64,000 bases of DNA from Bacteroidota bacterium (GTDB taxonomy: Bacteria; Bacteroidota; Ignavibacteria; Ignavibacteriales; SURF-24), in contig JBLMZS010000013.1 in the NCBI GenBank assembly GCA_050258935.1, positions 141,190-205,189 of the forward strand, written 5' to 3'. The notes under the pieces were generated by a model. That model worked only from the letters and a program-made list of their open reading frames with translations, had not been told where the DNA came from and did no database searches. Numbering within the stretch: the first letter of the stretch is position 1; every line of letters starts with the position of its first letter. Shown here one piece after another: positions 6,726 to 29,648 of the stretch. The position numbers were made by a program, and so were the translations under genes.

Positions 6726-6788
6726 ACAAAAAAGATTGCCGAAATTTATACAATAATATGTTCATATTAAATAATAAATTTCGGCAAT
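6726..6788 (-). terminator. Terminator closing the GH3-GH16 transcription unit
   Basis: 13-bp perfect stem ATTGCCGAAATTT / AAATTTCGGCAAT at 6735-6747 and 6776-6788. On the minus strand it is followed by CTTTTTTGTT. Confidence 0.6.
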
Positions 6789-6807
6789 TATTGAGGCAAT
6801 GCATTGA

Positions 6808-7635
6808 CTACTGTTTAGTATATACTCTCACATAATCCACAACCATCGACTGAGGGAAGAAGGTACTTTCTGAAGGGTTTCCCGGCCAGTTGCCTCCGAC
6901 AGCCACATTCAGCAGCAGGTGGAAGCGTTTGTCAAATGGTTTGGTGTGTATCTCGCGGTGATACACATTTCCATCCACGAACCATCTCATACCGACCTCA
7001 TCCCATTCAATCTGGAACACGTGAAATTCGTCCGCAAAGTTTCCCTTGGACAGTGCATATGTACCGCCGCCCTGCTGGTGATCCTGCGGAGAGCTTCCAA
7101 AGTGAATTGTACCATACACTTTATTGGTTTCGTGTCCCAGCAGTTCCATAATATCTATCTCGCCGCTGGCCGGCCATCCACCGTACTCCCAGTCACTGGG
7201 CAGCATCCATATTGCAGGCCACAGTCCTTTACCCTTAGGAAGCTTTGCTCTGATTTCAAAGCGGCCGTACTTCCAGTCACCCTTGAACCTTGTATTTATA
7301 CGGGCTGACGTATATTCCTTACCCTGATATTTTTCCCTGATGGCCTTTAGAATCAGGAATCCGTCCTGCAGATAAGAATTCGCTGCGGCATCTGTATAAT
7401 ACTGGAGTTCGTTATTGCCGCCGCCGTTACCGTTTACTTCGTGGGTCCATTTAGAAGTATCTATTGCAGTTCCTTTGAATTCATCGTTCCATACGAGTTT
7501 CCAGCCTGGGATATCCGGAATAGAGTCTGAAGTATCAGCAGGTACAGGTGGATCCACCGCCTTGTCCTCGCTTTTGCACGCGACGATCTGAGACAGAAAG
7601 ACGATATACAATATAAACGGGAATAATATTTTCAT
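6808..7635 (-). CDS. GH16 endo-beta-1,3(4)-glucanase (laminarinase-like) lipoprotein
   Basis: Lipobox …LSQIVAC. GH16 catalytic ExDxxE motif GEIDIMELLG. WPAIWMLP and a laminarinase-like sequence throughout. Confidence 0.9.
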   Translation of the reverse strand: MKILFPFILYIVFLSQIVACKSEDKAVDPPVPADTSDSIPDIPGWKLVWNDEFKGTAIDTSKWTHEVNGNGGGNNELQYYTDAAANSYLQDGFLILKAIREKYQGKEYTSARINTRFKGDWKYGRFEIRAKLPKGKGLWPAIWMLPSDWEYGGWPASGEIDIMELLGHETNKVYGTIHFGSSPQDHQQGGGTYALSKGNFADEFHVFQIEWDEVGMRWFVDGNVYHREIHTKPFDKRFHLLLNVAVGGNWPGNPSESTFFPQSMVVDYVRVYTKQ

Positions 7636-7647
7636 TTTGATATCCTG

Positions 7648-9912
7648 TTAGTTTTTGACTAGTTCGAATTCACCGGATTGCAGGTTCTGAGAATCAGTTC
7701 CGACAAAGACCCTGAATTTGCCCGGTTCGGAAACATATTCCATTTTGTCATTATAGAATCTTAGTTTCTTTTCATCAATTTCAAATTCGACACTAACCGA
7801 CTTGTTCTTCGGGATAAACACTTTTTTGAAATCTTTCAGTTCCTTTACAGGCCGTGTTACCGATGCAAATTCATCCTGCAGATACAGCTGAACTACTTCT
7901 TCTCCGTCGTACTCACTGTTGTTTTTCACTTCGACGGATATTTTAATCATAGAATTATTATCGAGTCTGCTGCTGCTCATATTCATTTTGCCGTAGCTGA
8001 AAGATGAATAACTCAGGCCGTATCCGAACGGATACAGCGGTGTAAGCGGCAGATCCAGATATTTAGAACTGTATGAGTTATTTACGTTGCCAGGTCTGCC
8101 GGTATTCTTGTGGTTATAATAGCACGGCACCTGTCCTACTGTCCTGGGGAATGTAACCGTCAGTTTGCCGGATGGATTGGTTTTTCCAAACAGAACATTT
8201 GCTATTGCGTCACCAGTTCTTATTCCCAGGAACCATGATTCAACTATGGCTGGTATATTTTCACTGATCCAGTTTATGGCAAGCGGCCTGCCGTTCATCA
8301 GAACAGTGACAATTGGCTTGCCTGTTCCGGCAATAGCTTTTGCCAGTTCATTCTGGACTCCGGGCAGTTCGAGAGAAGAGCGGCTGCGTGCCTCACCACT
8401 CATGCCCGCCTCCTCACCGACCACCAGTATTACGACATCAGCCATCTTTGCAGTGTTTACTGCTTCATCAAAACCTTTAACAGACGGATCTGTTATTGTA
8501 CAGCCTTTGCTGTAGAGAATTTCAGTACCCTTAGGAGCAGCATTCCTGATACCGGCAAGAACAGTTGTAACATTTTCCGCTTCACCTCTTTGTGCCCATG
8601 CGCCCAGCGGATTTGCAGAGTCATCAGCCAATGGTCCGATAAGAGCAATTTTGCGGGCATTGGATTTCAGAGGAAGCAGGTCTTTTTCGTTCTTCAGCAG
8701 CACTATTGATTTCTCTGCCACCTGGAGTGCAGCGTCTCTGATTTCGCGGCTGAGAACAGTTTTCTTTTCGTAACTGATGTTGCTGTATTTGTATGGATCA
8801 TCAAACAGTCCGAGCACAAACTTCAATTTCAATACTCTCCTTACTGCTTCGTCGATAGTTGACACATCAACTTTTTTATCCTTTACCAGAGATGGAAGTG
8901 ATTGGACATATGCACGTGACTCCATATCCATATCGAGTCCTGCGGTAATGGACAATTGTGCAGCTTCTGAGTTATCTGATGCATACCCGTGATTTATCAT
9001 TTCACCGATTGAATTCCAGTCGCTGACCACCATTCCTTTAAATCCCCATTCTTTTCTCAGCAGATCCGTCATCAGGAATCTGCTTGCTGATGAAGGTATT
9101 CCGGCTATTTCATTGAATGAGCACATGAATGTAGCAGCACCGGCGTCAACGGCAGCCTTAAACGGCGGGAGGTAAACCTCGCGCAGTGTTCTTTCTGACA
9201 TATCTACTGTATTATAATCCCTGCCGCCTTCTGCGGCTCCGTATGCCGCGAAATGTTTTGCGCATGCAAGAACAGATGTGTTGTCGGACATATTTCCCTG
9301 GTAACCCTTCACGCGCGATGCCGCGATCAGCGAGCCGAGATACTGGTCTTCGCCAGCACCTTCTACTATTCTGCCCCATCTGGGGTCGCGTGCAATATCC
9401 ACCATTGGCGAGAAAGTCCAGTGTATTCCGGCCGATGCAGCTTCAATTGCCTGCCAGCGTGCAGACATGCGGGTTATCGCCGTATCCCACGAGCACGCTT
9501 CAGCGAGTGGCACCGGGAAAGTTGCTTTATAGCCGTGAATTACATCGAGCCCGAAGAGCAGAGGTATTTTCAGGCGGCTCTCTTCCATTGCAGTTTTCTG
9601 CAGTTCTGTAGTCAGCTCGCTGCCCACTGCATTCAAGAAAGATCCGATCCTGCCTTCGCGCACAAGTTTTTTCTGATCGCTCAGTTTTTCATCCCTTACC
9701 AACGGTCCGAATCCAAGACCGCTGGAGAGCTGATTGAGCTGACCGATTTTTTCTTCGAGTGTCATCATTGAAATCAGTGAATCGATCTTATGGTCATATA
9801 CAGTGCTATTGATCAGCATTGGTGAAGAAACCTGCTGCTGCGGATACAAGTCAGTTTTGATTACAGATGCGAATAGTATCGCACCCAGAAATAGTATTTT
9901 TTTCATATTCAT
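7648..9912 (-). CDS. bglX: GH3 beta-glucosidase (BglX-like, three-domain)
   Basis: Has a signal peptide and KHFAAYGAAEGGRDYN. Nucleophile context is GFKGMVVSDWNSI. Has a C-terminal FnIII-like domain (VVQLYLQDEFASVTRPVKELKDF). Lies only 12 nt upstream of the GH16 gene. Confidence 0.9.
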   Translation of the reverse strand: MNMKKILFLGAILFASVIKTDLYPQQQVSSPMLINSTVYDHKIDSLISMMTLEEKIGQLNQLSSGLGFGPLVRDEKLSDQKKLVREGRIGSFLNAVGSELTTELQKTAMEESRLKIPLLFGLDVIHGYKATFPVPLAEACSWDTAITRMSARWQAIEAASAGIHWTFSPMVDIARDPRWGRIVEGAGEDQYLGSLIAASRVKGYQGNMSDNTSVLACAKHFAAYGAAEGGRDYNTVDMSERTLREVYLPPFKAAVDAGAATFMCSFNEIAGIPSSASRFLMTDLLRKEWGFKGMVVSDWNSIGEMINHGYASDNSEAAQLSITAGLDMDMESRAYVQSLPSLVKDKKVDVSTIDEAVRRVLKLKFVLGLFDDPYKYSNISYEKKTVLSREIRDAALQVAEKSIVLLKNEKDLLPLKSNARKIALIGPLADDSANPLGAWAQRGEAENVTTVLAGIRNAAPKGTEILYSKGCTITDPSVKGFDEAVNTAKMADVVILVVGEEAGMSGEARSRSSLELPGVQNELAKAIAGTGKPIVTVLMNGRPLAINWISENIPAIVESWFLGIRTGDAIANVLFGKTNPSGKLTVTFPRTVGQVPCYYNHKNTGRPGNVNNSYSSKYLDLPLTPLYPFGYGLSYSSFSYGKMNMSSSRLDNNSMIKISVEVKNNSEYDGEEVVQLYLQDEFASVTRPVKELKDFKKVFIPKNKSVSVEFEIDEKKLRFYNDKMEYVSEPGKFRVFVGTDSQNLQSGEFELVKN

Positions 9913-10022
9913 AATCGTATTAGTGTTGTAAAATATAAAAATGGACGAAACCCGCCCTCTGCCAGAGCAGATCCCGTCCGTGTGCGTAACATGAACGAGT
10001 AAGCTATGTTAAATTACAATAC

Positions 10023-11888
10023 TCAGTATGATAACCCGAATCCATATTTGAAAAGCGGTTCATAGGTCTTATCACCAATGTTAACCGGTATCTGATCCAT
10101 TGATGCAGGCCATGAAAACGAGAGTTTTCCCGACGGTTTGTAATCCCCGAACAGAACATCTGCCACTCCCTGTCCTTCGCTTCCGGGCAGCCATGCAGCA
10201 ATTAGCGCGTCGCTGTTTTCAAGCACGTTCCCGAGTATCATCGGTCTGCCTGAGAGCAGTATCACAACGCACGGAATTCCTTTGGCTTTTATGGATTCTA
10301 TCAGCTGCCTGTCTTTCTGCGGGATACTGAGATCTTTTCTGTCGCCTTCCATTTCGGCGTATGGTTCTTCGCCAATTACGACTATGGCAGCATCAGTTTT
10401 TTCTGCAGAGGCGATATCTTCCGCATATTTTACTGTGGTCTTATTTGAGACAGTATTTTTTATTGCTGACAGTATGCTTGTACCCTGAACGGTGTTACCG
10501 CTTTTCCCCTGCCAGCTGATAGTCCAGCCTCCGCACTGCATCCCGAGATTATCGGCGCCGCTGCCGGCAATAAGCAGACTGCCCATGTTTTTCTTCAATG
10601 GCAGCAGTTTGTCCTGATTTTTCAGAAGCACAAGCGACTGACGTACACAGTCTCTTGCTATCTGACGGTGTTCGGCAGAACCGACTGAAGTAAGCAGCGA
10701 CCTGTCCGTATACGGATGTTCAAACAGTCCCATCTGAAGCTTTATTTTCAGTATCCTTCTGACAGCATCATCGATCCTGGATACGGGCACTTTTCCTGCG
10801 GCAACGAGTTCCTTCAGATATGTGACAAACTCTATATAGTTATTCGGAGTGCCTGCTGCGAAAGGTATCATCACCATATCAAGTCCGGCATTTATGGATT
10901 CCTCAATATCGCTTTTATAATCGCCTGGCAATTGGTCAATGGCAGCCCAGTCAGATACCAGGAATCCTTCAAAGCCCAGTTCCTTTTTCAGTAGGTCTGT
11001 CAGCAGGTATTTATTCCCGTGCATCTTTTTACCGTTCCAGCTGCTGAAAGAAACCATAATAGAACCGGTACCTGCCTTTATAGCTTCTATATAGCCGGGC
11101 AGATATATTTCACGGAGTGTTTTTTCATCGCACCGCGTGTCCCCCTGGTCTTTTCCATTTACCGTTCCGCCATCACCCAGGAAATGTTTTGCACATGAAA
11201 GCACTGAAGTTTTGCCGTCAAGCTTTCTCCCCTGAAGTCCTTTGACGGCAGAAGCTCCAAGCTCTTTCACCAATTCGGGTGATTCGCCGAAGCTTTCGTA
11301 GCTGCGGCCCCAGCGTTCATCGCGCACGACAGCAACACACGGAGCAAATGTCCAGTCAATTCCGGTGGCGGCTATTTCTCTGGCGGTGATCATTGAAGCT
11401 TTTTCGACCAGTTTAGGATTCCTGGTGCAGCCCAGTCCTATATTATGCGGAAATATGACTGCGCCGGTTACATTATTGTGGCCGTGTACAGCATCGATAC
11501 CGTATATCATAGGTATTTTCAGTCTAGTCTTCAGAGCATACGACTGATATTTATCGTATGCGTCGGCCCAGCCTTTCGCTGAAATATCTGCAATTTCGCT
11601 GTTGCCGCCGCTGAGCAGTGAACCTATATAATACTTTGCAATATCCTCAGGTGATTTTACAATTGCATTCTCATCGACCTGAGTCATCTGTCCTATTTTT
11701 TCTTCGAGCGTCATTCCTGCCAGTATTTTTTCCGCCTGCTTTTCAATTGCATTCCTGTCTTTTTTATTTCCGGCGTAGCTGTCCGCGGGCAGTGCGGTAA
11801 TCAGGCAGGCGGACATCAGCAGCAGTGAAGCAATCGCAGGAGAAAAGTCCAGTCTTCCCGTACGAAAACCGAAAGGAAATAATTTCAT
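10023..11888 (-). CDS. GH3 exo-beta-glucosidase/glucan exohydrolase (ExoI-like, two-domain)
   Basis: [18 protein letters not shown] and the nucleophile context [14 protein letters not shown]. Has an N-terminal signal/anchor. Confidence 0.9.
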
Positions 11889-11929
11889 AGTATATCCTGA
11901 TGATAATGAATCATTTGAGAATTATAGAT

Positions 11930-11977
11930 ATAAAAAGAAGCTAGATGCGGCGGAGCTGCTAGAGTGTGCCGCATCTA
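11930..11977 (-). terminator. Terminator after the PorV-like gene
   Basis: 10-bp stem TAGATGCGGC / GCCGCATCTA at 11942-11951 and 11968-11977. On the minus strand it is followed by GCTTCTTTTTAT. Confidence 0.6.
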
Positions 11978-12017
11978 TTTCACCCTTCTAAGGAGTAGAG
12001 AGTTAAAAAGTAATGAA

Positions 12018-13043
12018 CTAAAAAGTAATACCTACAGAGAATTTCTGTATTTCCTCGAGTCTGCCGAAATCCGCATAAGAATAGTCAAATTTAACTGCGA
12101 CGTTTCCGAGCAGCATCTGTTTCAGACCGATACCGAGAGTAAATGATTCCTCGGAATCATCGAGGAACAGCGATTTGTAGCCGCCGCGCAGGAAGACAAC
12201 ATCGCTGAATGAATACTCGGCGCCGACGTTTACGGATTCATAGTTGTCGCTCGGATGAAGGGCATCGACTGCAATTGCAAGTTTATGGTCTTCAGTGAAC
12301 TTAGCCGTATATCCCAGACCTACTCTGAACATAAGCGGCAGCGACCATTCATCTGTCTGGAGGTTTGCGGGAATGTTTCCGTTATTTCCTGAATTTTCCG
12401 GATCGCTGTCGTATATAACCACATTGGAATTTCCGGTCATCTGCATTTTTGTACCGAAGTTTGAAATTGACATAGCGAGAATAATACCTTCAAAAGGAGT
12501 GCGGTATTTAACACCCATATCTATTGCAAATGCGGTAGCGCTCATTTTCCAGATCGACTGATGTACAAATTTCGGATTAAAGCCTATGGCAAAATTGTCG
12601 GTAAGGTTTATTCCGTAGCCGATACTGAATACTGCATCGCTGGCGCTGAATATTTCACCTGTGCCCAGTGGTTCGTCTACAGTAGTAACATTCATATCGC
12701 CATAGCTAGAAGATGTAAAGCTCACACCTATCGTTCCCATACCGCCCAGTCCGTAAGTCGCTGCCACATAGTTGTAAGTAACATCGGAAATCCAGTTAGT
12801 ATGATCAAACACAACCGCGCCATCTTCCATGCTGGCAAGTCCTGCCGGATTCCAGTACATAGAGCTTGGGTCATCGGCAATGGCAACAAAGGCACTGCCC
12901 ATTGCCGTAGCCCTCGCACCCTGTCCTATCAGAAGAAACGGAGCGGCGGATGTACCTCTTTTGGACACATCAGTAACGATGCTCTGTGCATGTCCAACTG
13001 TCACAATAGTCAACAGTAATATCACTAAAAATTTATTTCTCAT
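12018..13043 (-). CDS. PorV/PorQ-like (FadL-superfamily) outer-membrane beta-barrel
   Basis: Has a signal peptide. N-terminal motif GARATAMGSAFVAIADDPSSMYWNPAGLA. Amphipathic strand pattern. C-terminal …FSVGITF. Confidence 0.65.
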   Translation of the reverse strand: MRNKFLVILLLTIVTVGHAQSIVTDVSKRGTSAAPFLLIGQGARATAMGSAFVAIADDPSSMYWNPAGLASMEDGAVVFDHTNWISDVTYNYVAATYGLGGMGTIGVSFTSSSYGDMNVTTVDEPLGTGEIFSASDAVFSIGYGINLTDNFAIGFNPKFVHQSIWKMSATAFAIDMGVKYRTPFEGIILAMSISNFGTKMQMTGNSNVVIYDSDPENSGNNGNIPANLQTDEWSLPLMFRVGLGYTAKFTEDHKLAIAVDALHPSDNYESVNVGAEYSFSDVVFLRGGYKSLFLDDSEESFTLGIGLKQMLLGNVAVKFDYSYADFGRLEEIQKFSVGITF

Positions 13044-13057
13044 TTTTCCTATCTCCG

Positions 13058-16000
13058 TTATTTAATTACTGCAAATTTGCCGATATAAGTACCTATTCCC
13101 GGAGCGTCGACGTGATAGAAATAAACACCGTAGGCTATTTCCATTCCATCTTCTGAAACCAGGTTCCATGATATGGATCCGTCAGAAGGAGAGGAATCCT
13201 TTTCGAGCGTCTTAACCAGCGAACCGGCCATGTTATATATTCTGACCGTACATTTTGCAGGCAGGTTGATAATATCTATCTTACGTTCACCTCTGTCGTT
13301 AGTATTCAGAGTCCTCCTTTCCCATGAAGCCGCTCCGAGGTAAGGATTAGGTACGACGCTGATCTTTGACAATTCAGTTTTTGCCATTGAATTGTCGACC
13401 GACATAGCCTTAGGAGTAAATGTGAAATAGTCACCTGTTTTGAACTGTTTTGAAGTCTTTATCTCATACTTATCGCCGCCTGCAGGCATAACCGGATTTG
13501 CAAGAGGATCATCGGGAGCAGAATACAGAACTCTCCAGGCTATTCTTGAATTGCTTACAGACTGGCTGCCGACGAACTCAAGTATCTGAATCTCATCACC
13601 TATTGTAAGTGAGCCGGACAGGTCGTAATCCTTTGTAGCAAATTTGGAACGCTTGCCGGTAGTCTTATTGGTTATAGTGAAGTTAACCGGGAATTTTTTG
13701 TATCCCTGCGCAGCCGCTTCTATAAATGAAGTATCTGCCGGAGCGTCAGTAAACTGTATTTCATAATCTGACGGCCATGAAATTCCGCGGCTGGATGTTT
13801 CGGGCAGAACGTGTATGCCTAAGTTACTCTTGCTTGACAGCCATCCGGTTGCAGTATCTATCACTGCAATAGCAGTATCATTTTTCACAGACATTGTAAG
13901 TCCGTCAAACGGCGGGCTGTACTTGTCAACTCCAATGAATGATGTATCGAGTGCTGCCTGAAGAGTATCGGTAACTCCGTTCAGTATTCTTAGAATGGAG
14001 TAAGATGTAGTTTTGTATTTCGGTACATCACCGGCAGAAGTGAACTGGATCTTGTAGCTTGCACCAGCCTTTATAGCATCCGGGTTCAGTACGAAAACAT
14101 TCAGACCGCCGGTTCCGATACCCTGTGCGCTGTTAAGGTCACCTGTAATTTCGGGAGCCTTGTAGCCGGCCACCGGAGCGTTCGGAGTAATGACGGCGCA
14201 GTTAATGTCTACGAACTGCACGTTTCCGGCATAATCTTCAGAAATAATTTTAGTACATTCAGAAGGCTGGAGACCTTTAGTACCGTAACTCGGGTCACCC
14301 ATATCGTATGAAACGAGAGCATAGTAATAGCGCTGACCGTTCTTAACATCAGTATCGACGTAAGAATGCGATAGTCCCCTGTCGTCACCTCTCCAGAAGC
14401 TGGCGCCATTGATGCCAACCGGATCGGGACCGGTGATTTTATCTATCTTATCAAACTGAGCAATGGGTTTCCAGTATTTGGCTGCACCCTTTGAATCTGT
14501 AATAGTCTTGATATCATTGAATTCAGCTTCAGTACTTCTGTAAACGAGATATCCTTCAAAATCCTTCTTGTAGCCCTTAGTCATATCTCCGCCTTCAAAT
14601 CCTAAGAACGGATCGCGCGATTCTTCTGCAATTGAATCCCAGTAAAGGAATACTTTTCCATCACCCGGGACTGCAGTAAGAGTAGGCTTATAAGGTGGTT
14701 TTGAGAAGTTGTAGTTCGCATTGTAGATCTGCTGAACTGTTTCTTTATTGAACTTTATGTCGTCCAGATTATCTCCGAACAACAGAGCCATAGAGAATCT
14801 TTCTCTTTTCCCTTCGTTCAGCGGGAAACTTCCCGAGGCAAATACCATACTGATATTTGATTTCTGAAGAGATGTATCGAATTTGGTAGAACTCATTCTC
14901 TGCCACATAGCTTCGTCATCCTTCGGCCATCCGCCGCCAGTTCCGCCCTGGCCCAGTCTGTAAATAGAAACCGAAGTAAGGCCTATCTGATCAGATTCAT
15001 CCTTGTCAGTCTTATCGAAGTTAGGCTCGCCTGCAGTAGGAATTCCGTCACCTTCGCCAGGATCAGGACCGAGGTACTGAGGGTCAAAAGGACCAACGCC
15101 ATCTTCACCGACATCATCGTTGAGCGGTTCGTTCAGTTTTGAGTCCCATTTACCGTTACCATTTATATCGACATAACTTTTCCAGTCTTTATCGTTGTCG
15201 ATACCGTCATCGCGTTTTTCATCTACAATACCGTCCTCGTCATCATCCATTCCGTTTGTTGAATTTCCCGGACTTTCGAGGTATGCATATCCGTAGTAAC
15301 CAGTTTTCCAGTCATTCGGCACTCCCTTGCCGTTTGAGTCATAACAGTATGCAAGGTCGATTTTTTTATCGAAGCTGGCGTTATCATCTTCCGAGTCATC
15401 CTTTCCGCCCACACCGCAATCGGTATAGAAGCCGAAATAGGTATTCGGATACGGGTTATCGGAAATATTCACTATATCATAGTGCCAGAAAATGATATCC
15501 TCAGCCAGCACGTGCGACCACTGAAAGCCGCGTACTTCCACTCTGAGTCCGAGTCCGCCTCTGGAGGAATCGGAAGCCAGCGGGTAGTATTTATATGCAG
15601 GCTGCTGCCATTCTCCGTCCTTAGAATCGTCCATGACGAAAAATGTTTCGAAATCGGAGTTGTTGACTCCGCGGCCGAAGTATCCGTACCAGTAGCCGTT
15701 CCATTCTGAGGAAAGACCGAGAGCGGATGGCCATGTTGCAGGCCAGCTGTTTTTATTGGTATTCAGCGCCATATTTTCAGAGCTCTCATTGAAGTATCCA
15801 GGGACAGGTTCCAACCCCCAAATGGTACCTGTCTTCAGATCCTTATCCATCCATTCCCTGTAGGATGTCTCTAACGGGTGCTCTTTTTTGCCGGTTGCCG
15901 GAGCAGTAATCTCTGTGGTTACCAATACAGCAACACCGTCCAGGTACGAATGGCCGGAACCCTTTGGCCATTCACCCGAAGGCATATACGGCCACTGTCC

Positions 16001-16234
16001 TACTTCGCCGTTGTTGTAATACAGGGTTCTGACCAGGTTACCATCCATGACTCCTTCCCTGCGGTAGCGGACATCACCTTTCAGGTCATCCCTGTATTTC
16101 TGAATCTGAGGATCGACTACCTGCCCGTATAATGAAGGGCAGACGACCAGCAGCAGAAGCCAGAGTTTTTTCATATAAGATTTATTTGTATTCAATTTTT
16201 TAAGCATTATATTTCCTCCGGTATAGAAAAACAT
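13058..16234 (-). CDS. Large secreted protein of unknown function with Ca-binding acidic loops and a T9SS/FlgD-Ig-like C-terminal domain
   Basis: The annotated ATG overlaps the receptor stop (TAATG, 16232-16236). A more likely start is M21 at nt 16174, giving the signal peptide MKKLWLLLLVVCPSLYG. DxDxDG-type loops DDDEDGIVDE, DINGNGKWD and DDVGEDG lie at nt 14984-15253. The C-terminus reads …VVPNPYLGAASWE…YGVYFYHVDAPGIGTYIGKFAVIK. Confidence 0.8.
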   Translation of the reverse strand: MFFYTGGNIMLKKLNTNKSYMKKLWLLLLVVCPSLYGQVVDPQIQKYRDDLKGDVRYRREGVMDGNLVRTLYYNNGEVGQWPYMPSGEWPKGSGHSYLDGVAVLVTTEITAPATGKKEHPLETSYREWMDKDLKTGTIWGLEPVPGYFNESSENMALNTNKNSWPATWPSALGLSSEWNGYWYGYFGRGVNNSDFETFFVMDDSKDGEWQQPAYKYYPLASDSSRGGLGLRVEVRGFQWSHVLAEDIIFWHYDIVNISDNPYPNTYFGFYTDCGVGGKDDSEDDNASFDKKIDLAYCYDSNGKGVPNDWKTGYYGYAYLESPGNSTNGMDDDEDGIVDEKRDDGIDNDKDWKSYVDINGNGKWDSKLNEPLNDDVGEDGVGPFDPQYLGPDPGEGDGIPTAGEPNFDKTDKDESDQIGLTSVSIYRLGQGGTGGGWPKDDEAMWQRMSSTKFDTSLQKSNISMVFASGSFPLNEGKRERFSMALLFGDNLDDIKFNKETVQQIYNANYNFSKPPYKPTLTAVPGDGKVFLYWDSIAEESRDPFLGFEGGDMTKGYKKDFEGYLVYRSTEAEFNDIKTITDSKGAAKYWKPIAQFDKIDKITGPDPVGINGASFWRGDDRGLSHSYVDTDVKNGQRYYYALVSYDMGDPSYGTKGLQPSECTKIISEDYAGNVQFVDINCAVITPNAPVAGYKAPEITGDLNSAQGIGTGGLNVFVLNPDAIKAGASYKIQFTSAGDVPKYKTTSYSILRILNGVTDTLQAALDTSFIGVDKYSPPFDGLTMSVKNDTAIAVIDTATGWLSSKSNLGIHVLPETSSRGISWPSDYEIQFTDAPADTSFIEAAAQGYKKFPVNFTITNKTTGKRSKFATKDYDLSGSLTIGDEIQILEFVGSQSVSNSRIAWRVLYSAPDDPLANPVMPAGGDKYEIKTSKQFKTGDYFTFTPKAMSVDNSMAKTELSKISVVPNPYLGAASWERRTLNTNDRGERKIDIINLPAKCTVRIYNMAGSLVKTLEKDSSPSDGSISWNLVSEDGMEIAYGVYFYHVDAPGIGTYIGKFAVIK

Positions 16235-19011
16235 TAAAATCCAAATCCGAAACCAAGTCTGATCTCTCTCGGCGAGGAATACATGCTGGGATTTGAAGTA
16301 TATTCAGAAATTGTATTCATCCCGATAATATCCCCGGCATATTTAGTATTGAGATCTCTGTTGGCGCGTCCTGTTGTAGAATAAACACCATTTTCATTTT
16401 TTATATCGAGCAGGTTATAGACCAGCAGGAATGTATTCAGATTAACTCCGTAAATGTTGAATGTTTTCTCTGCACGGAAGTCTACATTATATGTCGCCGG
16501 TTTAATTCCGCCGTTCTGGAATCTTATACCGTTTGAGACCTTGATATCTTCGGTATATGGGAAGCCTGATCCATACTGGAATACTATGCCGGTCGTCCAG
16601 TCGCCCGGTTCACCCACCGTAAGTTCAAGGTTGAGTGTATTTCTCTGATCCCAGTCGAGGGGCAGCACTTTCTTTGTTTCAGGAATCGGGGGATCTGTCT
16701 GGTTGTTGTTGAAAACGGACATAGGATCAGATGCATTGCCTTCTGCGATCTGATATGTATAATCCACCTTGGCGCTGAAGTAGTCGGCAAATCTCTTTTC
16801 GAGGGTAACTATAAAACCTCTTACGTTACCATAGTCCCTGTTGATATACCTGGCGTATTTGAAACCTTCATATGTGTTGATGATTTCCATACCAAGAAGA
16901 TTTCTGATATCACGGTAGTAGGCAGTAAAGTTAAGAACGACGTTCGGGAACAATACCTGCTGAAGACCGATTTCATACATTACAGTTTTCTGCGGTTTCA
17001 GATCGGGATTACCGGTGATATATGAAAGCGATTCACCCGGATTAACTATGAAATCAGGGTTTGTATACAGGTTTTCATAATTCGGTATCTGGAAGAAGTG
17101 TCCGTAGGAAAATCTGATGATACCTTCATCGGTGATCGGGAACGAAGCTCCGAGTCTTGGGCTTATCTGAAATTTCGGATCAACTTTTCTCATCACTCCT
17201 GCATTGGGGAAATCGGGATTTCTTCTGGGATTCCTGAGATCTGCAAGCAGTTCTGAATTCGGATCGAAATAATCGAGCCTGATACCGGCATTTATGATCA
17301 TGATATCATATTCCATTTTATCCTGGATGTATGCCGAAAATTCGCGGGGCGTTTTGTTATAAAGTATATTTGAACCCTGGTCGGTCATAGTGCCCTGATC
17401 AGGATAGCCAGGTGTAAATATTACCTTGCCCGTCAGAGTGTCGACCTGCCCGTCTGTCAGATTTACGAGATCCAGATTGTGCTGAAACATCTTGTGGAGC
17501 CTGGCTTCTGCACCCATGCCGATCTTGTGTTCCTTGGTTATCTGTGAAGCAAGTGTCCACTGAATAATTTTTGTAATAGTTGTTCTGTAATATCTTCCGC
17601 CCTGATTGCCGCCTGACCTGAACACATAGTTTGTAAGGGCGACACCCTGGCGGGGACTTACGTATCTCTGGTCGAACATATCCTCATAAAGATAACCTTC
17701 ATAGTTATGTTCATTATATGAGAACTTAAGGCTCTGATAAGTGTTGGAACTGGGATAGTGGAAAATCTGAAAACTGTGGATGGCATTTTTCCTGTAATGA
17801 TTCATTATACCATCAGGAGTCCATGAATAGCCATGATCGTAGTATTTATTATAATTATCGTCCCACATCAGGCCGTATGTAAATTTAAGATAAGGAGTTG
17901 AATAACTGATCTTTCCATTTACGGAATATTTTCTGTCCGGATTCATAGGTACGTATGAGCTGTCGCCGGTATGGATATAATAATAAACATTGTCTCCAAA
18001 GGGCAGTTTGACCGGAGCGTCGTCATTTACGCTGTAGATCCTCCTGCCATAAAGGTGCCCCTTGTTATCATAATATCTGCCGGATACAAAATAAGTCAGA
18101 TTTTTTACGATAGGTCCGCTGAAACTGAACTGAAAATTTTTCGTAGCTATATTGTCAAGCTTGTCGAGGTTTTTGAAAAGATCGTCGTGTGTTGTAAAAT
18201 AGTTTCCGATATATCCCGAAGCTGTTCCCTCAAATTTTGCAGACCCCTCCTGAGTAACTATGTTTACTATACCAGACATAGCCTGTCCGTATTCAGCGTT
18301 GAAAGTACCGCTAATAACTTCCATCTGGCGAATCGAGTTATTATCCACCTCAAGGCTCATGCCGCCGTTATAAGCATCTGTAACGGACACTCCGTCGATC
18401 AGATATGCAACCTCGTTGGAACGTCCGCCGCGGAAGTGTCCGCCAACGACACCAGCCTGAAGGTTGATCACCTGGCCGACATCCTCAACCGGCATCATCT
18501 TCATATCCGAAGCGGAAATGGTGGCTGATGTGGATGTAAGATCCTTCTGAACCAGTGGTCTGTCTGCCTTTACAACGACTTCCTGCCCCAGTGTAAGCGT
18601 TGTCGACTTTATCTGTATATCTATTCGAGTAGTTAAATCTATTTTAACTAAAACATCTTCAACGGTCACTTTTGAATAGCCGACGGCACTGGCAATAATC
18701 TTATGAGTGCCGGGCTGAATGTTGCTAATACTATAATATCCATCTATATCCGTTGCGGCACCCAGGTAGGTACCTTCAACTATAACATTCACACCAAATA
18801 CCGGTTGTCCTGTTTCATCGGTCACTTTACCTGTAATCTTTCCAGTGGTTCCGGCAAATACTGCTCCGGAGGCCAGCACGGAAATTATGAACATGAGCAG
18901 GTACTGTTTTGCATTCGCAAATCTTATAGTAAACCGCTCCATGTTAGTGTTTTTTTCAGCAGAGGTTTCCAAATCCAAAGCCTCCTTATATTGTATATTC
19001 AGCATATTCAC
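16234..19011 (-). CDS. TonB-dependent outer-membrane receptor with an N-terminal CarboxypepD_reg-like domain
   Basis: The probable true start is M24 (MERFTIRF…, nt 18942), giving the signal peptide …ASGAVFA. Contains GKITGKVTDETGQPVFGVNVIVEGT, a plug and a long barrel. C-terminal …REIRLGFGFGF. Confidence 0.9.
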   Translation of the reverse strand: MNMLNIQYKEALDLETSAEKNTNMERFTIRFANAKQYLLMFIISVLASGAVFAGTTGKITGKVTDETGQPVFGVNVIVEGTYLGAATDIDGYYSISNIQPGTHKIIASAVGYSKVTVEDVLVKIDLTTRIDIQIKSTTLTLGQEVVVKADRPLVQKDLTSTSATISASDMKMMPVEDVGQVINLQAGVVGGHFRGGRSNEVAYLIDGVSVTDAYNGGMSLEVDNNSIRQMEVISGTFNAEYGQAMSGIVNIVTQEGSAKFEGTASGYIGNYFTTHDDLFKNLDKLDNIATKNFQFSFSGPIVKNLTYFVSGRYYDNKGHLYGRRIYSVNDDAPVKLPFGDNVYYYIHTGDSSYVPMNPDRKYSVNGKISYSTPYLKFTYGLMWDDNYNKYYDHGYSWTPDGIMNHYRKNAIHSFQIFHYPSSNTYQSLKFSYNEHNYEGYLYEDMFDQRYVSPRQGVALTNYVFRSGGNQGGRYYRTTITKIIQWTLASQITKEHKIGMGAEARLHKMFQHNLDLVNLTDGQVDTLTGKVIFTPGYPDQGTMTDQGSNILYNKTPREFSAYIQDKMEYDIMIINAGIRLDYFDPNSELLADLRNPRRNPDFPNAGVMRKVDPKFQISPRLGASFPITDEGIIRFSYGHFFQIPNYENLYTNPDFIVNPGESLSYITGNPDLKPQKTVMYEIGLQQVLFPNVVLNFTAYYRDIRNLLGMEIINTYEGFKYARYINRDYGNVRGFIVTLEKRFADYFSAKVDYTYQIAEGNASDPMSVFNNNQTDPPIPETKKVLPLDWDQRNTLNLELTVGEPGDWTTGIVFQYGSGFPYTEDIKVSNGIRFQNGGIKPATYNVDFRAEKTFNIYGVNLNTFLLVYNLLDIKNENGVYSTTGRANRDLNTKYAGDIIGMNTISEYTSNPSMYSSPREIRLGFGFGF

Positions 19012-19037
19012 AGTCTCATTATCTTTAAGGATTAGAA

Positions 19038-19068
19038 CAGGATATCTCCCGGTTCGGGAGATATCCTG
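19038..19068 (-). promoter_or_regulatory. Intercistronic stem-loop between the surface-protein gene and the TonB receptor gene; possibly an attenuator or processing site
   Basis: 14-bp perfect stem CAGGATATCTCCCG / CGGGAGATATCCTG with a 3-nt loop. On the minus strand only a weak T tract (TTCTAATCC) follows. Confidence 0.4.
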
Positions 19069-19077
19069 GAATGTGTA

Positions 19078-21588
19078 TTATTTAATTAACATCATTTTCT
19101 TTACGCTCTGGAAATCACCGGCCTTTATCTGATAGAGATATATACCGCTGGCCAGATGCGAAGCATTGAATGATACTGTATGTGAACCGGCATCCTGCTG
19201 CATATTAACAAGACTTGCCACTTCTCTTCCCAGTACATCATATACCTTCAGAGTCACTAATCCGGCCTGTCCGAGCGAATATTTGATCTGAGTAGACGGA
19301 TTGAACGGGTTAGGATAATTCTGATCGAGTGAGTATGTCGTAGCAACCATTGGTTTGTCATTTACTCCGACTGTCCACTGATCACCGATCCAGGTGTATA
19401 ACCATCTCCATACATCCTGATACGATTTATCATCGTTGAAAGGCGAGTAACTGAGGATACCTTCTCTTTGACCAGTAGCATCGGCATCATTAAGAGAGAT
19501 ATCAATTGGAATTCTCATGCCGTTTGCAGGAACGAACAGAGAGTCGAAATTGGTGGCGCCTGCATTTCTTTTTCTTGCAAAATCAGCCAGAGGAATTCTT
19601 GCTTCTACTACATATCCGGTCGGGAATTTTTCAGTCCATGAATAATTAGCTCCGGGAAGCAGCAGTGTATCAAGTGACTGTCCGTCAAAACGGGCTTTGT
19701 CCTTTGAGAATCTTGCATGATAATCGGGTGAAAGTCCTCTTCCATAACCGGCGTGAGGAACACCGTGCCAGTCATAGAGACCTATATAGAGATCTGCACA
19801 GTCATTCTTATAATCGTCAGTATTTGCAGGATTGACAGTTATCATATCGTCTTCGACGTCGTAAGCAACGTAAAGGTTTTCCTTGTCAATAGCGAGGTAA
19901 ACTTTTGCTGAGCAGTCTGCGTCATCATTGATAAGTGTATTAGGAGCAACAAATCCGGTACCCTGTGATCTTGCAACAGTAATCGGAGTGATTGCTGACC
20001 ATTCTTTCAGATCGCCGTCGGCAGCAAATGAAGTTGCCGGAGGATTGAGTGATATTGTCGGAACACCGAGAGCTGTGTTAGTAGCTGCACCTGCAGGAGC
20101 TGCTATTTCACTGGCATTACCGAATGCGTCTGTACAAACGATAGCATAATAGTATGTTACCTGCTGATCAGATACCGGTGCACGGAGAAGGTGCTCGACT
20201 ACCGAAACGTTCTCTCCTATTCCCTTCTTTACTACTTCTACGTCTGATGATTTGATGTCTGTAATCGGTGATTTTGAATAGTATACGTCGTATACTTCTT
20301 TTGATTCACCAGGTACATCTGTCCAGCTGATAAGGTTGCTGTTTGTGCTGGCATTGACCATTACGCCGTCAGGTTTATTCGGAGCGACAACGTCAAATAC
20401 AGGGTTGCCTGTCCAGATATCGTCCATATAGATATCGCATGCCTTGGATGAACCGTTTTCTGTGAGAATTTCGAATTTCTTCACCTTTGAAGAATCGAAT
20501 CCGGCTTTATTATCTGATACCACCCAGTTGCGCAGAGGTATTCTGATAGTTTTCCACGTGCCGTCCCAGTTGTAGTCTGCAGCTTTTGCAACATATTTAA
20601 TTGCTGCATCAGTACCTGCCTGGGTATTGCTCATGAACTGAATACGTATATCATCGCCGAATTCAGCGGGAACTTTCACTTTCATTTTCAGAGTATCGTT
20701 GGTGATCCAGTTTCCGGCCATGTTCTTTTCAGCAAAGTCAAAGTACATGCCCGACCAGCCGCCGCCGCCGCTCCACTTGATAGCCGATTTACCCTGTGCA
20801 GAGCCGGAATTTGGTTCAATAGCAACAGAACCGCCCCAGCCTCCCATTGTAAGGTCGCCGGTAACTACTTTTCCGTTGAATACTACGAACGGTACAGACC
20901 TGTAGCCAAACCTGGTGAAATTATCGTAGCTTACGACTATCGAGTCCATGGGAAGATTTCTCGGAGCCACATATCCGGTTGTAATTATACCGAGGTTAAA
21001 GCCGACTATTTTATCTCTGTCAAGCTTTTCATTGTTGTATGTTCCGCCGCCCCAGCTCTTCGGGAAAAGTACAAATCCCTCTGCATTCGGAGTTACAGAA
21101 CCATCGGTAGGACGTTCAACGAGCGGAACTCTCAGGTTAACCCAGCCATCTGCCTTGTCCAGTATGACGGTCTGTTCGTAAATGTATTCTTCGTTAGATA
21201 CATCGGCACTCGGTCTGTCGGCAATGTGAATCCTGAAGACCATGTTTTCAGGGAGCGTCGGGGCCTGATGAACTTTGATCCAGATGCTGAGTGAATCACT
21301 TCCGCTCCAGTCGAACGGAGCTGCATCACTGGGAACACTGTAAATTAACTGGGCATAGCTGCCCCAGGGATGTGCAGAATCAACAGTAGCTGTTACTTTT
21401 ACTGCACCGGTACCTTCGTGTTTGTCAGTCTGATCGATCACGTTGACCATCTTGGATTTTCCCTCGATGCTCACCTTGTACCTGGTACTCAGTGAATCGA
21501 AATTATCGATTTCGAATACCTGTGCGTATGACATAACAGGAAGAAACCACAACATCAACAGAAGTGATTGTAGCAAACGCTTTTTCAT
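19078..21588 (-). CDS. Secreted multi-module carbohydrate-binding surface protein (beta-sandwich modules, FN3, CBM9-like) with a T9SS C-terminal sorting domain
   Basis: Signal peptide MKKRLLQSLLLMLWFLPVMSYAQ. FN3-like PNKPDGVMVNASTNSNLISWTDVPGESKEVYDVYYS. CBM9-like block DGDLKEWSAITPI…AKVYLAIDKENLYVAYDVEDD…GYVVEARIPL…ISLNDAD. C-terminal domain QNYPNPFNPSTQIKYSL…SGIYLYQIKAGDFQSVKKMMLIK. Confidence 0.8.
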   Translation of the reverse strand: MKKRLLQSLLLMLWFLPVMSYAQVFEIDNFDSLSTRYKVSIEGKSKMVNVIDQTDKHEGTGAVKVTATVDSAHPWGSYAQLIYSVPSDAAPFDWSGSDSLSIWIKVHQAPTLPENMVFRIHIADRPSADVSNEEYIYEQTVILDKADGWVNLRVPLVERPTDGSVTPNAEGFVLFPKSWGGGTYNNEKLDRDKIVGFNLGIITTGYVAPRNLPMDSIVVSYDNFTRFGYRSVPFVVFNGKVVTGDLTMGGWGGSVAIEPNSGSAQGKSAIKWSGGGGWSGMYFDFAEKNMAGNWITNDTLKMKVKVPAEFGDDIRIQFMSNTQAGTDAAIKYVAKAADYNWDGTWKTIRIPLRNWVVSDNKAGFDSSKVKKFEILTENGSSKACDIYMDDIWTGNPVFDVVAPNKPDGVMVNASTNSNLISWTDVPGESKEVYDVYYSKSPITDIKSSDVEVVKKGIGENVSVVEHLLRAPVSDQQVTYYYAIVCTDAFGNASEIAAPAGAATNTALGVPTISLNPPATSFAADGDLKEWSAITPITVARSQGTGFVAPNTLINDDADCSAKVYLAIDKENLYVAYDVEDDMITVNPANTDDYKNDCADLYIGLYDWHGVPHAGYGRGLSPDYHARFSKDKARFDGQSLDTLLLPGANYSWTEKFPTGYVVEARIPLADFARKRNAGATNFDSLFVPANGMRIPIDISLNDADATGQREGILSYSPFNDDKSYQDVWRWLYTWIGDQWTVGVNDKPMVATTYSLDQNYPNPFNPSTQIKYSLGQAGLVTLKVYDVLGREVASLVNMQQDAGSHTVSFNASHLASGIYLYQIKAGDFQSVKKMMLIK

Positions 21589-21747
21589 ATTCTTACCTCC
21601 TGATAGTTTTTAAATAAACATTTTATAAGAGCAGCATTACCCTTATATGACTTACTTCACTTTTCTAACTCAACAGATAGAAACTCTATTTATTATATAT
21701 CCATTTGAGAAAATATTTTCAGGTAATAATATCCCTGAACCGGTCTG

Positions 21748-23286
21748 TCAGAATGGATACTTGCCCGCTGCAGTAGCCTTAATTTCGGCTTCACCGGGTA
21801 TTTCATTTAACTTCGCTACAGTCATTGGAACAGGAAACATTTTACTGATAGCAAATATCATAATAGTACAAATTGCAAATGAAAATATCGAGAAATGCAA
21901 AAAGTTAATATTTACTATTGATCCTACGAGACTCGCAGGACTGGCATCTGCGAAATAATTATCGAAGAGCAGTTTTGCCGATCCGAGGATTTCACCCAGC
22001 AGCAGCGTCCAGAAGGCACCGCGGGCATTTACTTTTTTGTTCATCAGTCCGAATAAAAAAACCACAGTAATCGGAGGAGCAAAAAGTCCCTGCAGATTCT
22101 GCAAAGAAAGATAGACCTGCGAATTAATTATCTTGATTATCGGGATGCATAGTATAGCCACAATAACCATTCCCATCGTCATAAGTCTTCCGACGAGCAC
22201 CAACTTTACATCTGATACATCCGGATGGTTAAGCTTGTAATAATCGTTGGTGAAAAGTGCTGCCGATACATTGAATACGCTGGCGAGTGAAGACATAATA
22301 GCCGAAAGCAGACCCACGACCACCAATCCTTTAATGCCGGCCGGAAGAATATTGCTGGCTATCAGTGTCGGATATGCCTCGTCACCCCTTATTTCCGGGA
22401 AAAGTGCGACAGCAATGAGTCCCGGCAGAACCAGAATGAAAATAGGTGTTATCTTCAGCAGTGATGCGAATATGGAACCCTTGCGCGCGTCGGCGATGCT
22501 GCGGGCGGATAAAAGCCGCTGGACAATATACTGGTCAGTACACCAGTACCAGAATGCCAGTATCGGAGCGCCGAACAGCATTCCGGTCCACGGGAAATCC
22601 GGATCGCCTGCAGGTTTAATAATATGGAAGTACTGGGGATCCAGCTTCTGATACAGCCCGGTAAATCCGCCAACATGATACAGGCCGAATACAGTCAGTA
22701 TGACCGCTCCAAGCAGCAGCAGCACTGCCTGCAGAACATGTGTTTTCATAATCGTATAGGAACCGCCGATAACGCTGTATATACCGGTTATAAGCACCAG
22801 TATTATTGCAGAAGTATATATGTTCAGTCCGAACATTTTCTGGAACAGAAAGCCTCCGGCCAGAAGGGATACAGAAATCTTAGTGACTATATATACAATA
22901 ATTGAAATCAGAGAGAACAGTTTTCTGCTTCGGCGGTCAAAGCGCTCTTCCAGAAATTCAGGAGTGCTCATTATGCCGGAGCGTATGAATACAGGAGCGA
23001 CAAAACGCCCGAGCAGTATCAGTATAAACACCGCGAGCAGTTCAAACTGCCCTACCGCCAGACCACGTGTTGCACCTGAACCGGCAAGTCCGATGAAGTG
23101 TTCACTTGATATATTCGTAGCAAATATTGATAGTCCGACGGTAATCCAGCCCATCTTTCTGCCTGCAAGAAAGTATCCGGCCATGTCTTTGGTTTCACGG
23201 CTGGAATAATAAAATGCCATGCTCAGCAGTACGATGAGATATGCAAAGAGTATCGAAAAATCTATTAGTGTAAATTGACCGTTCAT
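21748..23286 (-). CDS. Sodium:solute symporter family (SGLT-like) sugar transporter
   Basis: 512 aa with about 13-14 predicted TM helices. SSF-type N-terminus …YFLAGRKMGWITVGLSIFATNISSEHFIGLAGSGATRGLAV. Confidence 0.9.
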   Translation of the reverse strand: MNGQFTLIDFSILFAYLIVLLSMAFYYSSRETKDMAGYFLAGRKMGWITVGLSIFATNISSEHFIGLAGSGATRGLAVGQFELLAVFILILLGRFVAPVFIRSGIMSTPEFLEERFDRRSRKLFSLISIIVYIVTKISVSLLAGGFLFQKMFGLNIYTSAIILVLITGIYSVIGGSYTIMKTHVLQAVLLLLGAVILTVFGLYHVGGFTGLYQKLDPQYFHIIKPAGDPDFPWTGMLFGAPILAFWYWCTDQYIVQRLLSARSIADARKGSIFASLLKITPIFILVLPGLIAVALFPEIRGDEAYPTLIASNILPAGIKGLVVVGLLSAIMSSLASVFNVSAALFTNDYYKLNHPDVSDVKLVLVGRLMTMGMVIVAILCIPIIKIINSQVYLSLQNLQGLFAPPITVVFLFGLMNKKVNARGAFWTLLLGEILGSAKLLFDNYFADASPASLVGSIVNINFLHFSIFSFAICTIMIFAISKMFPVPMTVAKLNEIPGEAEIKATAAGKYPF

Positions 23287-23324: not shown

Positions 23325-23340
23325 GTCATAAACAATGCCA
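23325..23340 (-). promoter_or_regulatory. Weak candidate sigma54 (-24/-12) promoter for the glycan-utilisation operon
   Basis: The minus strand reads TGGCATTGTTTATGAC about 50 nt upstream of the symporter ATG. The -24 TGGCA is perfect. The -12 is ATGA rather than TTGC, so the conserved C is missing. Confidence 0.2.
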
Positions 23341-23467
23341 GAGGTGAAAAGTCTTCAAATCCGTAAAATTTCGCGGTATTGTGTATCCAGTGGTATTTCC
23401 GGGCAGGGTTTTTATTTATTAAAATTATAATCGGTTTTATTATTTTAATAAGGGAGCATACAGTTTT

Positions 23468-29595: not shown

Positions 29596-29620
29596 TTATT
29601 CCACATATGTGTGAGATTCA

Positions 29621-29648
29621 AAGGCGGATTTATCCGCCTTTTTTTTTG
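29621..29648 (+). terminator. Rho-independent terminator of the MFS transporter gene
   Basis: AAGGCGGATTTATCCGCCTT followed by a T9 run. Confidence 0.85.

Follow-up and report, generated by a model that had tools for sequence, protein, structure and literature searches.

Three genes encoding a TonB-dependent receptor, a large protein outside all Pfam families (family X) and an outer-membrane barrel of the PorV/PorQ family were found nearly always adjacent to one another, and diverging together, across several phyla of the Fibrobacterota-Chlorobiota-Bacteroidota (FCB) group, while the genes around them change. The trio was recognized in a stretch of 64,000 nucleotides (nt) from a bacterium of the class Ignavibacteria (contig JBLMZS010000013.1), referred to here as the window, where it is part of a locus for β-glucan utilization at positions 6808-23286 (features are on the minus strand unless marked +). 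On balance, this locus is probably a σ54-regulated β-1,3(4)-glucan locus built on a lineage-typical uptake module that replaces SusC/SusD, by a mechanism that we infer below. The β-glucan locus itself is ordinary for its lineage, and the novelty lies rather in the conserved module, which is apparently undescribed.

Conservation of the three-gene cassette

The receptor encoded in the window (925 amino acids, aa; 16234-19011) has CarboxypepD_reg, plug and barrel domains, as assigned with Pfam. Its gene is followed by those of X (1058 aa; 13058-16234), which is predicted to be a secreted β-rich protein, and of the barrel (341 aa; 12018-13043), which scored 231 bits against the family model NF033709 (cut-off 90). 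The three genes are closely spaced, with overlaps or gaps of at most about 27 nt, and the longest open reading frame (ORF) of X overlaps the stop codon of the receptor gene by 1 base. Because the database copy of X starts 9 codons later (1049 aa) and a signal peptide is recognized from Met21 (MKKLWLLLLVV…), the true start of X is probably downstream of the one listed, and the mature ORF probably comprises 1038-1049 aa. The receptor ORF is GTG-initiated and its signal peptide begins near Met24.

Relatives of X were sought in one genome per GTDB species, which returned 174, and the best 80 loci were fetched and searched with the window's own proteins. These loci belong to Ignavibacteria, Melioribacteraceae, Kryptoniota, Calditrichota, KSB1, Neomarinimicrobiota, Krumholzibacteriia, Stahlbacteria and Rhodothermales, the taxon labels of metagenome-assembled genomes (MAGs) being those deposited; flanking genes were counted from simple ORF calls. 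Directly upstream of X, a receptor gene was present in 57 of 64 cases that could be tested; directly downstream, a barrel gene was present in 65 of 71. All three genes were clustered in each of the 57 loci that could be tested on both sides (from Ignavibacteria, Calditrichota, KSB1, Neomarinimicrobiota, Kryptoniota and Rhodothermales), and the standard order was kept in 49 of these. The eight exceptions were three overlaps between ORF calls, one frameshifted copy and four permuted orders inside the cluster. The similarity scores of receptor, X and barrel co-vary across loci (Spearman coefficients of 0.67-0.74, n = 55). Variants of the cassette were also seen: the order receptor, barrel, X in loci L027 and L086, two tandem X genes before the receptor in L020, and two cassettes back to back in L058.

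Divergent members of family X (42-44% identity) have a common core, in which a protein with a type IX secretion system (T9SS) C-terminal domain (CTD) is followed by a CarboxypepD_reg TonB receptor, X and a PorV/UPF0164-like barrel. The genes next to this core differ from lineage to lineage. They encode a solute-binding protein (SBP), ATP-binding cassette (ABC) permeases and a glycoside hydrolase (GH) of family GH130 in Calditrichota; an SBP, ABC components and a GH2 mannosidase in KSB1; GH130, two GH38 enzymes, a major facilitator superfamily (MFS) transporter and a ROK kinase in a JGI metagenome; and GH2, GH16-malectin, GH3 and GH5-CBM6 proteins in Ignavibacterium sp. In a Pfam census of the divergent loci, T9SS sorting domains were found in 17 of 87 and 25 of 83 flank genes (42 of 170), together with GH16, GH3, GH94, the PF10091 'glycoamylase' family, GH13 with CBM20/CBM48, LacI regulators, ABC permeases and sodium:solute symporters (SSF). 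Since the flanking binding proteins, enzymes, importers and regulators vary, the trio behaves as a substrate-independent outer-membrane module, to which specific parts attach as they do to SusC/SusD in Bacteroidia.

Two explanations other than an uptake module of three parts bear directly on these counts. In the first, the locus would be an ordinary TonB-linked cluster of carbohydrate-active enzymes (CAZymes), of the type of the Xanthomonas carbohydrate utilization (CUT) loci or of the gammaproteobacterial polysaccharide utilization loci (PULs); the receptor would act alone, and X and the PorV-like barrel would be bystander surface or structural proteins, syntenic through shared ancestry. Glycan loci with a TonB-dependent transporter (TBDT) and no SusD are well known (PMC13543919), and susCD genes are scarce in Ignavibacteriales CAZyme clusters (PMC10576277), both of which would suit a lone receptor. 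We nevertheless regard it as improbable: the synteny of the trio is held over phylum-level distances at 30-40% identity with every neighbour replaced, some genomes carry several paralogous cassettes (L042 and L083 share a contig, L038 and L043 a MAG), and the three proteins co-diverge. The CUT and gammaproteobacterial loci resemble the window locus in that they combine a TonB receptor, CAZymes, an inner-membrane transporter and a regulator without SusD (PMC13543919). Obligatory co-encoded surface partners are not described there, whereas here two genes are locked to the receptor. A further difference is that the system in the window appears to be T9SS-dependent, and Proteobacteria are not known to possess a T9SS.

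The second explanation reverses the direction of transport. The trio would be an export device in which a TonB barrel of the CarboxypepD_reg type secretes, with X as cargo or accessory; Myxococcus Oar, a TonB-dependent barrel used for secretion, would be the analogue. The CarboxypepD_reg domain at the N-terminus of the receptor and faint OMP_b-brl_4 matches in its relatives are consistent with such a device. The cassettes, however, are consistently found in catabolic loci, with periplasmic exo-glycosidases, SSF, MFS or ABC importers and sugar-type regulators, and export by the trio is very improbable.

Full-text searches of open-access literature returned no description of the trio; coverage was of open-access texts only, so that this absence is no proof. 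The trio is also undescribed in the genome papers on Melioribacter and Caldithrix, and a 2026 review of bacterial glycoside transporters does not mention it, nor Ignavibacteria, T9SS, Calditrichota or Fidelibacterota. In Rhodothermus marinus, a xylan locus that also has a SusC/SusD pair contains the genes Rmar_1070-1072, listed as a TonB receptor and, after it, two hypothetical proteins; a Por C-terminal domain is given for the first of the two (PMC6987092 Table 1). These genes may be the same trio, unrecognized, and are a candidate from the description in that table, in a cultured organism with available genetics and characterized enzymes.

Family X, its barrel and the role of SusD

Family X comprises 4415 clusters at 50% identity in a public protein library (E ≤ 1e-3; 643 clusters at E ≤ 1e-30), and none of the 4415 clusters has a Pfam family. 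The window protein has a 100% identical copy in a MAG labelled 'Bacteroidota bacterium' and shares 65-70% identity with proteins from Ignavibacterium album and numerous further Ignavibacteria, which places the host in this class. Its conservation profile is high over residues 51-700, low over residues 700-950 and highest over the C-terminal 100 residues, which divides the gene into an N-terminal region that is conserved and has acidic, Ca-binding-like loops (14135-16084), a variable region (13385-14137) and a highly conserved T9SS-like CTD (13061-13282). An AlphaFold model built from a 61-sequence alignment (pLDDT 81.5, pTM 0.71) is a chain of β-sandwich domains. The N-terminal sandwich is broken by long acidic loops (DNDxDGxxDE, DGIDNDGDW and GEGDGxPTxGEPNFD) and is followed by a domain like fibronectin type III (FN3), more sandwiches, a low-confidence linker and a C-terminal Ig-like domain.

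The CTD has motifs resembling those of type-A sorting domains (VVPNPY, GVYFYHV and GKFAVIK) plus a conserved insertion with the sequence WE…GRGER. When a profile of the CTD was searched against PDB sequences, the CTDs of PorZ (5m11, residues 690-758, E 4e-4) and PorU (6za2, residues 1085-1142, E 5e-4) were the only single-stretch matches at E < 0.001, besides additive WD40 noise. A profile of the whole of X matched the same two CTDs at weaker E, alongside two short unrelated matches. The C-termini of PorZ (E 2e-4) and PorU (E 4e-4) were likewise matched in NCBIfam, and Foldseek placed PorZ first (E 1e-6) and PorU fifth for the model, the TM values being those of a single small domain. PorU and PorZ are the two T9SS proteins that keep their CTDs, to which PorV and PorQ bind, and cognate PorV-like barrels have been proposed to shield CTDs from cleavage (PMC10202324). 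The barrel encoded next to X matches PorV in the PDB (6h3i, E 4e-11). It scored 89 bits against the PorV equivalog model NF033710 (cut-off 250) and 108 bits against that of PorQ, NF033711 (cut-off 220), and by these scores it is a PorV/PorQ-family member that is neither PorV nor PorQ, belonging to a distinct paralogue class.

Other identities for X were tried and rejected. As a solved or otherwise known family, X gave matches to the CTD only in searches of PDB sequences and nothing above threshold in Pfam or NCBIfam. Foldseek with the whole model returned only local matches of low TM (the PorZ and PorU CTDs, FN3 arrays and GH94/GH149 phosphorylases); the phosphorylase matches probably reflect the β-sandwich. 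A PorU-like cysteine peptidase was rejected on the finding that no Cys or His is invariant in the diverse alignment A1.

The likeness of the X CTD to those of PorZ and PorU also raises the possibility that X and the barrel are a sorting or attachment pair of the T9SS, PorZ/PorQ- or PorU/PorV-like and dedicated to the locus, which would fix CTD-bearing cargo (proteins with carbohydrate-binding modules, CBMs, and CTD-tagged glycoside hydrolases) near the receptor, X itself having neither glycan binding nor functional contact with the transporter. Several observations would fit: the X CTD resembles those of PorZ and PorU only, CTD-bearing proteins flank the cassettes almost always, and the conservation of X exceeds that of the substrate-binding protein, as would be expected of a machinery part. 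The likeness to PorZ and PorU is, however, limited to the CTD (TM 0.07-0.13), no Cys or His that could form a catalytic dyad of the PorU type is invariant in alignment A1, the link to a TonB receptor in 57 of 57 testable loci is unexplained by sorting alone, and the window locus has one standard-CTD gene only, its GH16 enzyme being a lipoprotein. A pure sorting role is accordingly considered rather unlikely. Set beside the PorZ-PorQ and PorU-PorV systems of Porphyromonas gingivalis, the pair in the window shares the pairing of a large CTD-bearing surface protein with a PorV-family barrel, and the X CTD is closest to exactly these two retained CTDs. It differs in that it occurs in many copies per genome, in catabolic loci, and is always TonB-linked; the N-terminal 950 aa of X are unrelated to the PorZ propellers or the PorU peptidase, and the barrel scored under the PorV and PorQ equivalog cut-offs.

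The initial annotation had noted the lack of SusD and suggested that its role is absent or taken over by other proteins. The lack of SusD holds. No SusD/RagB family match was obtained in Pfam at E ≤ 10 for the 1058-aa protein X, for the 836-aa surface protein of the locus or for a 604-aa protein encoded nearby, and no SusD family match was found in the other locus genes or in the nine flanking proteins that were scanned. The SusD fold is helical and TPR-like. The AlphaFold models of the 836-aa and 1058-aa proteins are confident and nearly all β, and a SusD hidden in either of them was rejected on both grounds. The receptor is no SusC either. It scored 63 bits against the SusC/RagA model TIGR04056 (cut-off 368), over residues 58-257 only (N-terminal domain and plug), and SusC homologues in the PDB align to it over a 60-aa N-terminal domain only. 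It has an EVVVKA motif that resembles a TonB box and is, by sequence comparison, outside the SusC/RagA family. Nor is the absence of SusD an anomaly; it is the expected, normal state of Ignavibacteria, because the CAZyme clusters of Ignavibacteriales in paddy-soil metagenomes are reported to be susCD-scarce (PMC10576277). The suggestion that other proteins take over the role of SusD is supported, with the correction that the 1058-aa protein and the barrel, treated as incidental in the initial annotation, are the conserved partners of the receptor; they are the best candidates for that role.

Among the components of a canonical SusC/SusD PUL, the locus has co-localized CAZymes and a dedicated regulator and has neither SusC nor SusD. 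All components of the broader class of TBDT-linked CAZyme clusters are present (receptor, CAZymes, inner-membrane transporter and regulator, in co-directional genes). The locus thus fits a PUL in function and, by membership, a TBDT-linked CAZyme cluster in the broad sense. It shares with the SusC/SusD PULs of Bacteroidota (for laminarin in marine Flavobacteriia and for β-glucan in gut Bacteroides) the endo- and exo-glycanases, a glycan-binding surface protein, a TonB importer extended by an N-terminal domain, an inner-membrane transporter and a sensor/regulator of its own. The logic is likewise shared, being that of capture at the surface, then endo-cleavage, import powered by TonB and trimming in the periplasm. 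It differs in the receptor, which fails the SusC/RagA model, and in the lack of SusD. Here the surface proteins would be delivered by the T9SS, with a lipoprotein only for GH16; the fixed partners of the receptor are a β-rich protein of about 1050 aa and a PorV-like barrel; the regulatory genes encode an SBP, a histidine kinase and a σ54 activator instead of a hybrid two-component system or an extracytoplasmic function (ECF)/anti-sigma pair; and the importer is of the SSF instead of the MFS type.

The following mechanism is proposed. The 836-aa multi-CBM protein would be exported by the T9SS, tethered to the surface and capture glucan, which the GH16 lipoprotein would cleave to oligosaccharides. 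X would be a T9SS substrate that keeps its CTD, as PorZ and PorU do, the CTD docking in the PorV-like barrel encoded next to it. X would in this way be held beside the TonB receptor as a surface partner, whether as a lid, a binding subunit or a hand-over subunit, in a position that would be the counterpart of the SusD role, performed by lipid anchoring in Bacteroidia. On established family functions, the TonB-powered receptor would import the oligosaccharides, the two GH3 enzymes would trim them to glucose and the SSF protein would take up the glucose. Also on family functions, the SBP and kinase would sense periplasmic oligosaccharide, and the NtrC-type regulator would activate a σ54 promoter upstream of the SSF gene. 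More generally, and tentatively, the trio may be a widespread nutrient-capture machine of non-Bacteroidia FCB lineages (Ignavibacteria, Calditrichota, KSB1, Fidelibacterota/Marinimicrobia, Kryptoniota, Rhodothermales and others), in which X is a subunit of the TonB importer and its CTD is retained in a private PorQ-like barrel; we hold this to be possible but somewhat doubtful.

Several observations weigh against these proposals. The X CTD falls below the type-A models TIGR04183 and PF18962, with weak matches to CHU_C (E 0.015) and FlgD_ig (E 0.016), and because weak similarity and motifs are what speaks for them, T9SS secretion of X and retention of its CTD are steps that we infer. The N-terminal portion of X, about 650 aa, had no detectable relative in phmmer and profile searches of PDB sequences. 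X is also highly conserved, at 65-70% identity compared with 45-55% for the 836-aa CBM protein from the same organisms, and is therefore unlikely to be the substrate-specific element; its conservation agrees with a part in the machinery, specificity then lying in the CBM protein and perhaps also the variable region of X. On the side of regulation, the candidate σ54 element of the locus matches the consensus poorly, and the strict σ54 consensus is not enriched across the window (20 matches, 31.6 expected). Lastly, some Rhodothermales cassettes adjoin Amidase_2 and FG-GAP proteins and no classical CAZymes. Because of these flanks, the module is possibly not restricted to plant or algal glycans, and the substrate of the Rhodothermales subgroup may be peptidoglycan-derived.

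Details of the Rhodothermales MAGs are as follows. An FG-GAP protein with a CTD is encoded upstream of the cassette in L048, L052, L054 and L087, and an Amidase_2 (N-acetylmuramoyl-L-alanine amidase) protein downstream in L048, L052 and L054. An AAA ATPase is encoded downstream in L087 and, farther on, in L052, and one Rhodothermales locus has a GHL10 protein.

Glycan uptake in the FCB group is known almost wholly via SusC/SusD, and large, environmentally abundant sister lineages mostly lack SusD, among them Ignavibacteria in sediments and reactors, Marinimicrobia/Fidelibacterota in the ocean interior, Calditrichota and KSB1. If the proposed role of the trio is true, it would be an independent evolutionary counterpart of SusD in Bacteroidia, answering the same problem, and a concrete model of polysaccharide capture in SusD-poor FCB lineages. 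It would also be a second physiological use of the principle of a CTD retained in a PorV-like barrel, beyond the T9SS attachment complex, and would widen the role of PorV-family barrels beyond that of secretion shuttles, to the permanent anchoring of subunits for nutrient uptake. The three-gene module could serve as a genomic marker for PUL-like loci, as present PUL predictors key on susCD. Cultured carriers (Ignavibacterium album, Rosettibacter firmus and Melioribacteraceae isolates such as strain 4301-Me) make the question directly testable.

Genes, substrate and regulation of the β-glucan locus

The ORF list of the window has eight ORFs at 6808-23286, all on the minus strand and co-directional, and both this count and the identities given to the genes in the initial annotation were borne out by ORF, Pfam and NCBIfam analysis. 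The first gene encodes an SSF sodium:solute symporter, predicted to be the inner-membrane sugar importer (512 aa; 21748-23286; PF00474, E 8e-82; TIGR00813, 342 bits, cut-off 184). It is followed by the gene for the 836-aa multi-CBM surface protein (19078-21588) and by the trio. The remaining three genes encode a GH3 exo-β-glucanase resembling barley ExoI and ExoP (621 aa; 10023-11888), a GH3 periplasmic β-glucosidase of the BglX type with an Fn3-like domain (754 aa; 7648-9912; NF011678, 835 bits, cut-off 666) and a GH16 endo-β-1,3(4)-glucanase of the laminarinase type, predicted to be a lipoprotein (275 aa; 6808-7635; PF00722). Folding analysis supported hairpins with U-runs as terminators 3′ of the PorV-like gene (11940-11975, z −3.0) and 3′ of the GH16 gene (6735-6790, z −4.4), both of which had been predicted, and revealed a third and stronger one that had been missed, between the two GH3 genes (9943-9979, z −6.0). 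The gene order of the locus recurs in other genomes, among them Ignavibacterium sp. AP026678.1 and loci L008-L015, L038, L040 and L073; the arrangement is not due to chance.

The enzymes point to the substrate. The closest solved relatives of the GH16 protein are the laminarinases 4dfs, 3azx and 3iln (E about 1e-64), and its relatives in the PDB span E 1e-64 to 1e-40 and include Thermotoga and Rhodothermus laminarinases and other β-1,3(4)-glucanases. The best 20 were deposited as laminarinases, β-1,3(4)-glucanases or unnamed GH16 proteins, with no agarase, porphyranase or carrageenase among them, and the protein scored 35 bits against a κ-carrageenase model (cut-off 350). A GH16 specific for agarose, porphyran or carrageenan would have contradicted the initial annotation; the relatives and model scores point to a glucanase instead. 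The sequence contains the catalytic motif GEIDIME and an N-terminal lipobox (…IVAC|KSEDK). Like the Thermotoga and Rhodothermus laminarinases (4dfs, 3azx and 3iln), it is a single-domain GH16 of about 30 kDa with an ExDxME motif; unlike them, it is a predicted lipoprotein. Jermuk-LamM, a GH16 of Fidelibacterota that hydrolyses β-1,3 and β-1,3-1,4 glucans (PMC12296878), is an enzyme of the same GH16 type from sister phyla, likened to the window enzyme by description only. Both GH3 proteins have the GH3 N- and C-terminal domains in Pfam. The best PDB relatives of the 621-aa protein are 3wli (barley ExoI type, E 4e-175) and 3rrx (ExoP, exo-1,3/1,4-β-glucanase, E 6e-155). With laminarinase, ExoI/ExoP and BglX relatives, the assignment of the GH16 and GH3 set to β-glucan is supported. 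A β-1,3 or mixed-linkage β-glucan is thus a well-supported substrate on sequence grounds, and laminarin specifically would be a plausible form of it. The Na+ symporter, which had been set against the MFS transporter of Bacteroidota laminarin PULs, is present at this locus as an SSF protein but is not a rule, since sister cassettes have ABC or MFS importers.

The 836-aa protein carries a CBM11/30-like domain with an SGBP_B_XBD-like match (20422-20778), a CBM9 domain (19405-19932), an FN3-like domain and a T9SS type-A CTD (19090-19317; TIGR04183, 48 bits, cut-off 23; PF18962, 46 bits, cut-off 27). Its AlphaFold model (pLDDT 87) is all-β, and Foldseek aligned it with CBM9 (1i82, TMt 0.80), CBM11 (6r31, TMt 0.74) and CBM30 (TMt 0.71). 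CBM11 is a binder of mixed-linkage (β-1,3-1,4) glucan. Homologues of the protein bear the source annotation 'sugar-binding protein'. From its domains and model, together with the Pfam, NCBIfam and Foldseek matches, it would be a T9SS type-A cargo with a surface glycan-binding role.

Sensor genes had been placed directly upstream of the locus, and this was confirmed with Pfam, which assigned an SBP, a histidine kinase and a σ54 regulator. The SBP (SBP_bac_1/8; 26575-27924) has an N-terminal transmembrane segment, is predicted to be membrane-anchored and periplasmic, and is the probable oligosaccharide-sensing partner of the kinase (25010-26485), which has two transmembrane segments and a HATPase_c domain. 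The response regulator (23538-25001) is of the NtrC type, σ54-dependent, with Response_reg, Sigma54_activat and AAA lid domains (E 2e-69). The same three genes are found upstream of cassettes in L015, L073 and L082. The candidate σ54 element, TGGCAT-N5-ATGAC in the −24/−12 arrangement (23325-23340), is a weak match located 54 nt 5′ of the SSF start codon, and elements resembling it lie at comparable distances in L001, L015 and L018.

Between the genes for the σ54 regulator and the SSF protein there is also a near-perfect hairpin of 98 nt (23440-23537; minimum free energy −36.8 kcal/mol, z −9.1). Its arms are made of TTAGTTCTCAG-like direct repeats, and a U-tail is not clearly present. The hairpin may be a repeat element or may act as a terminator/insulator.

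A PPIC-type peptidyl-prolyl isomerase of 607 aa (4884-6707) is encoded directly downstream of the terminator that follows GH16. Rotamase genes account for 5 of 83 genes that flank other cassettes, and the isomerase may be a periplasmic chaperone tied to the assembly of these outer-membrane modules. The 604-aa ORF (2869-4683) has no Pfam family at E ≤ 10 and is also located 3′ of the same locus in a near-identical contig (L002). A divergent group of genes at 28276-33960 (+) encodes an MFS transporter, a PAS/GAF histidine kinase and an 845-aa TonB-like barrel with CarboxypepD_reg and OMP_b-brl_3 domains, which is a second, different receptor without an X or PorV-like partner. A 474-aa protein encoded at 46394-47818 (+) has a T9SS type-A CTD and no other recognized domain; as a further type-A CTD protein of the window, it confirms that the organism uses the T9SS widely.

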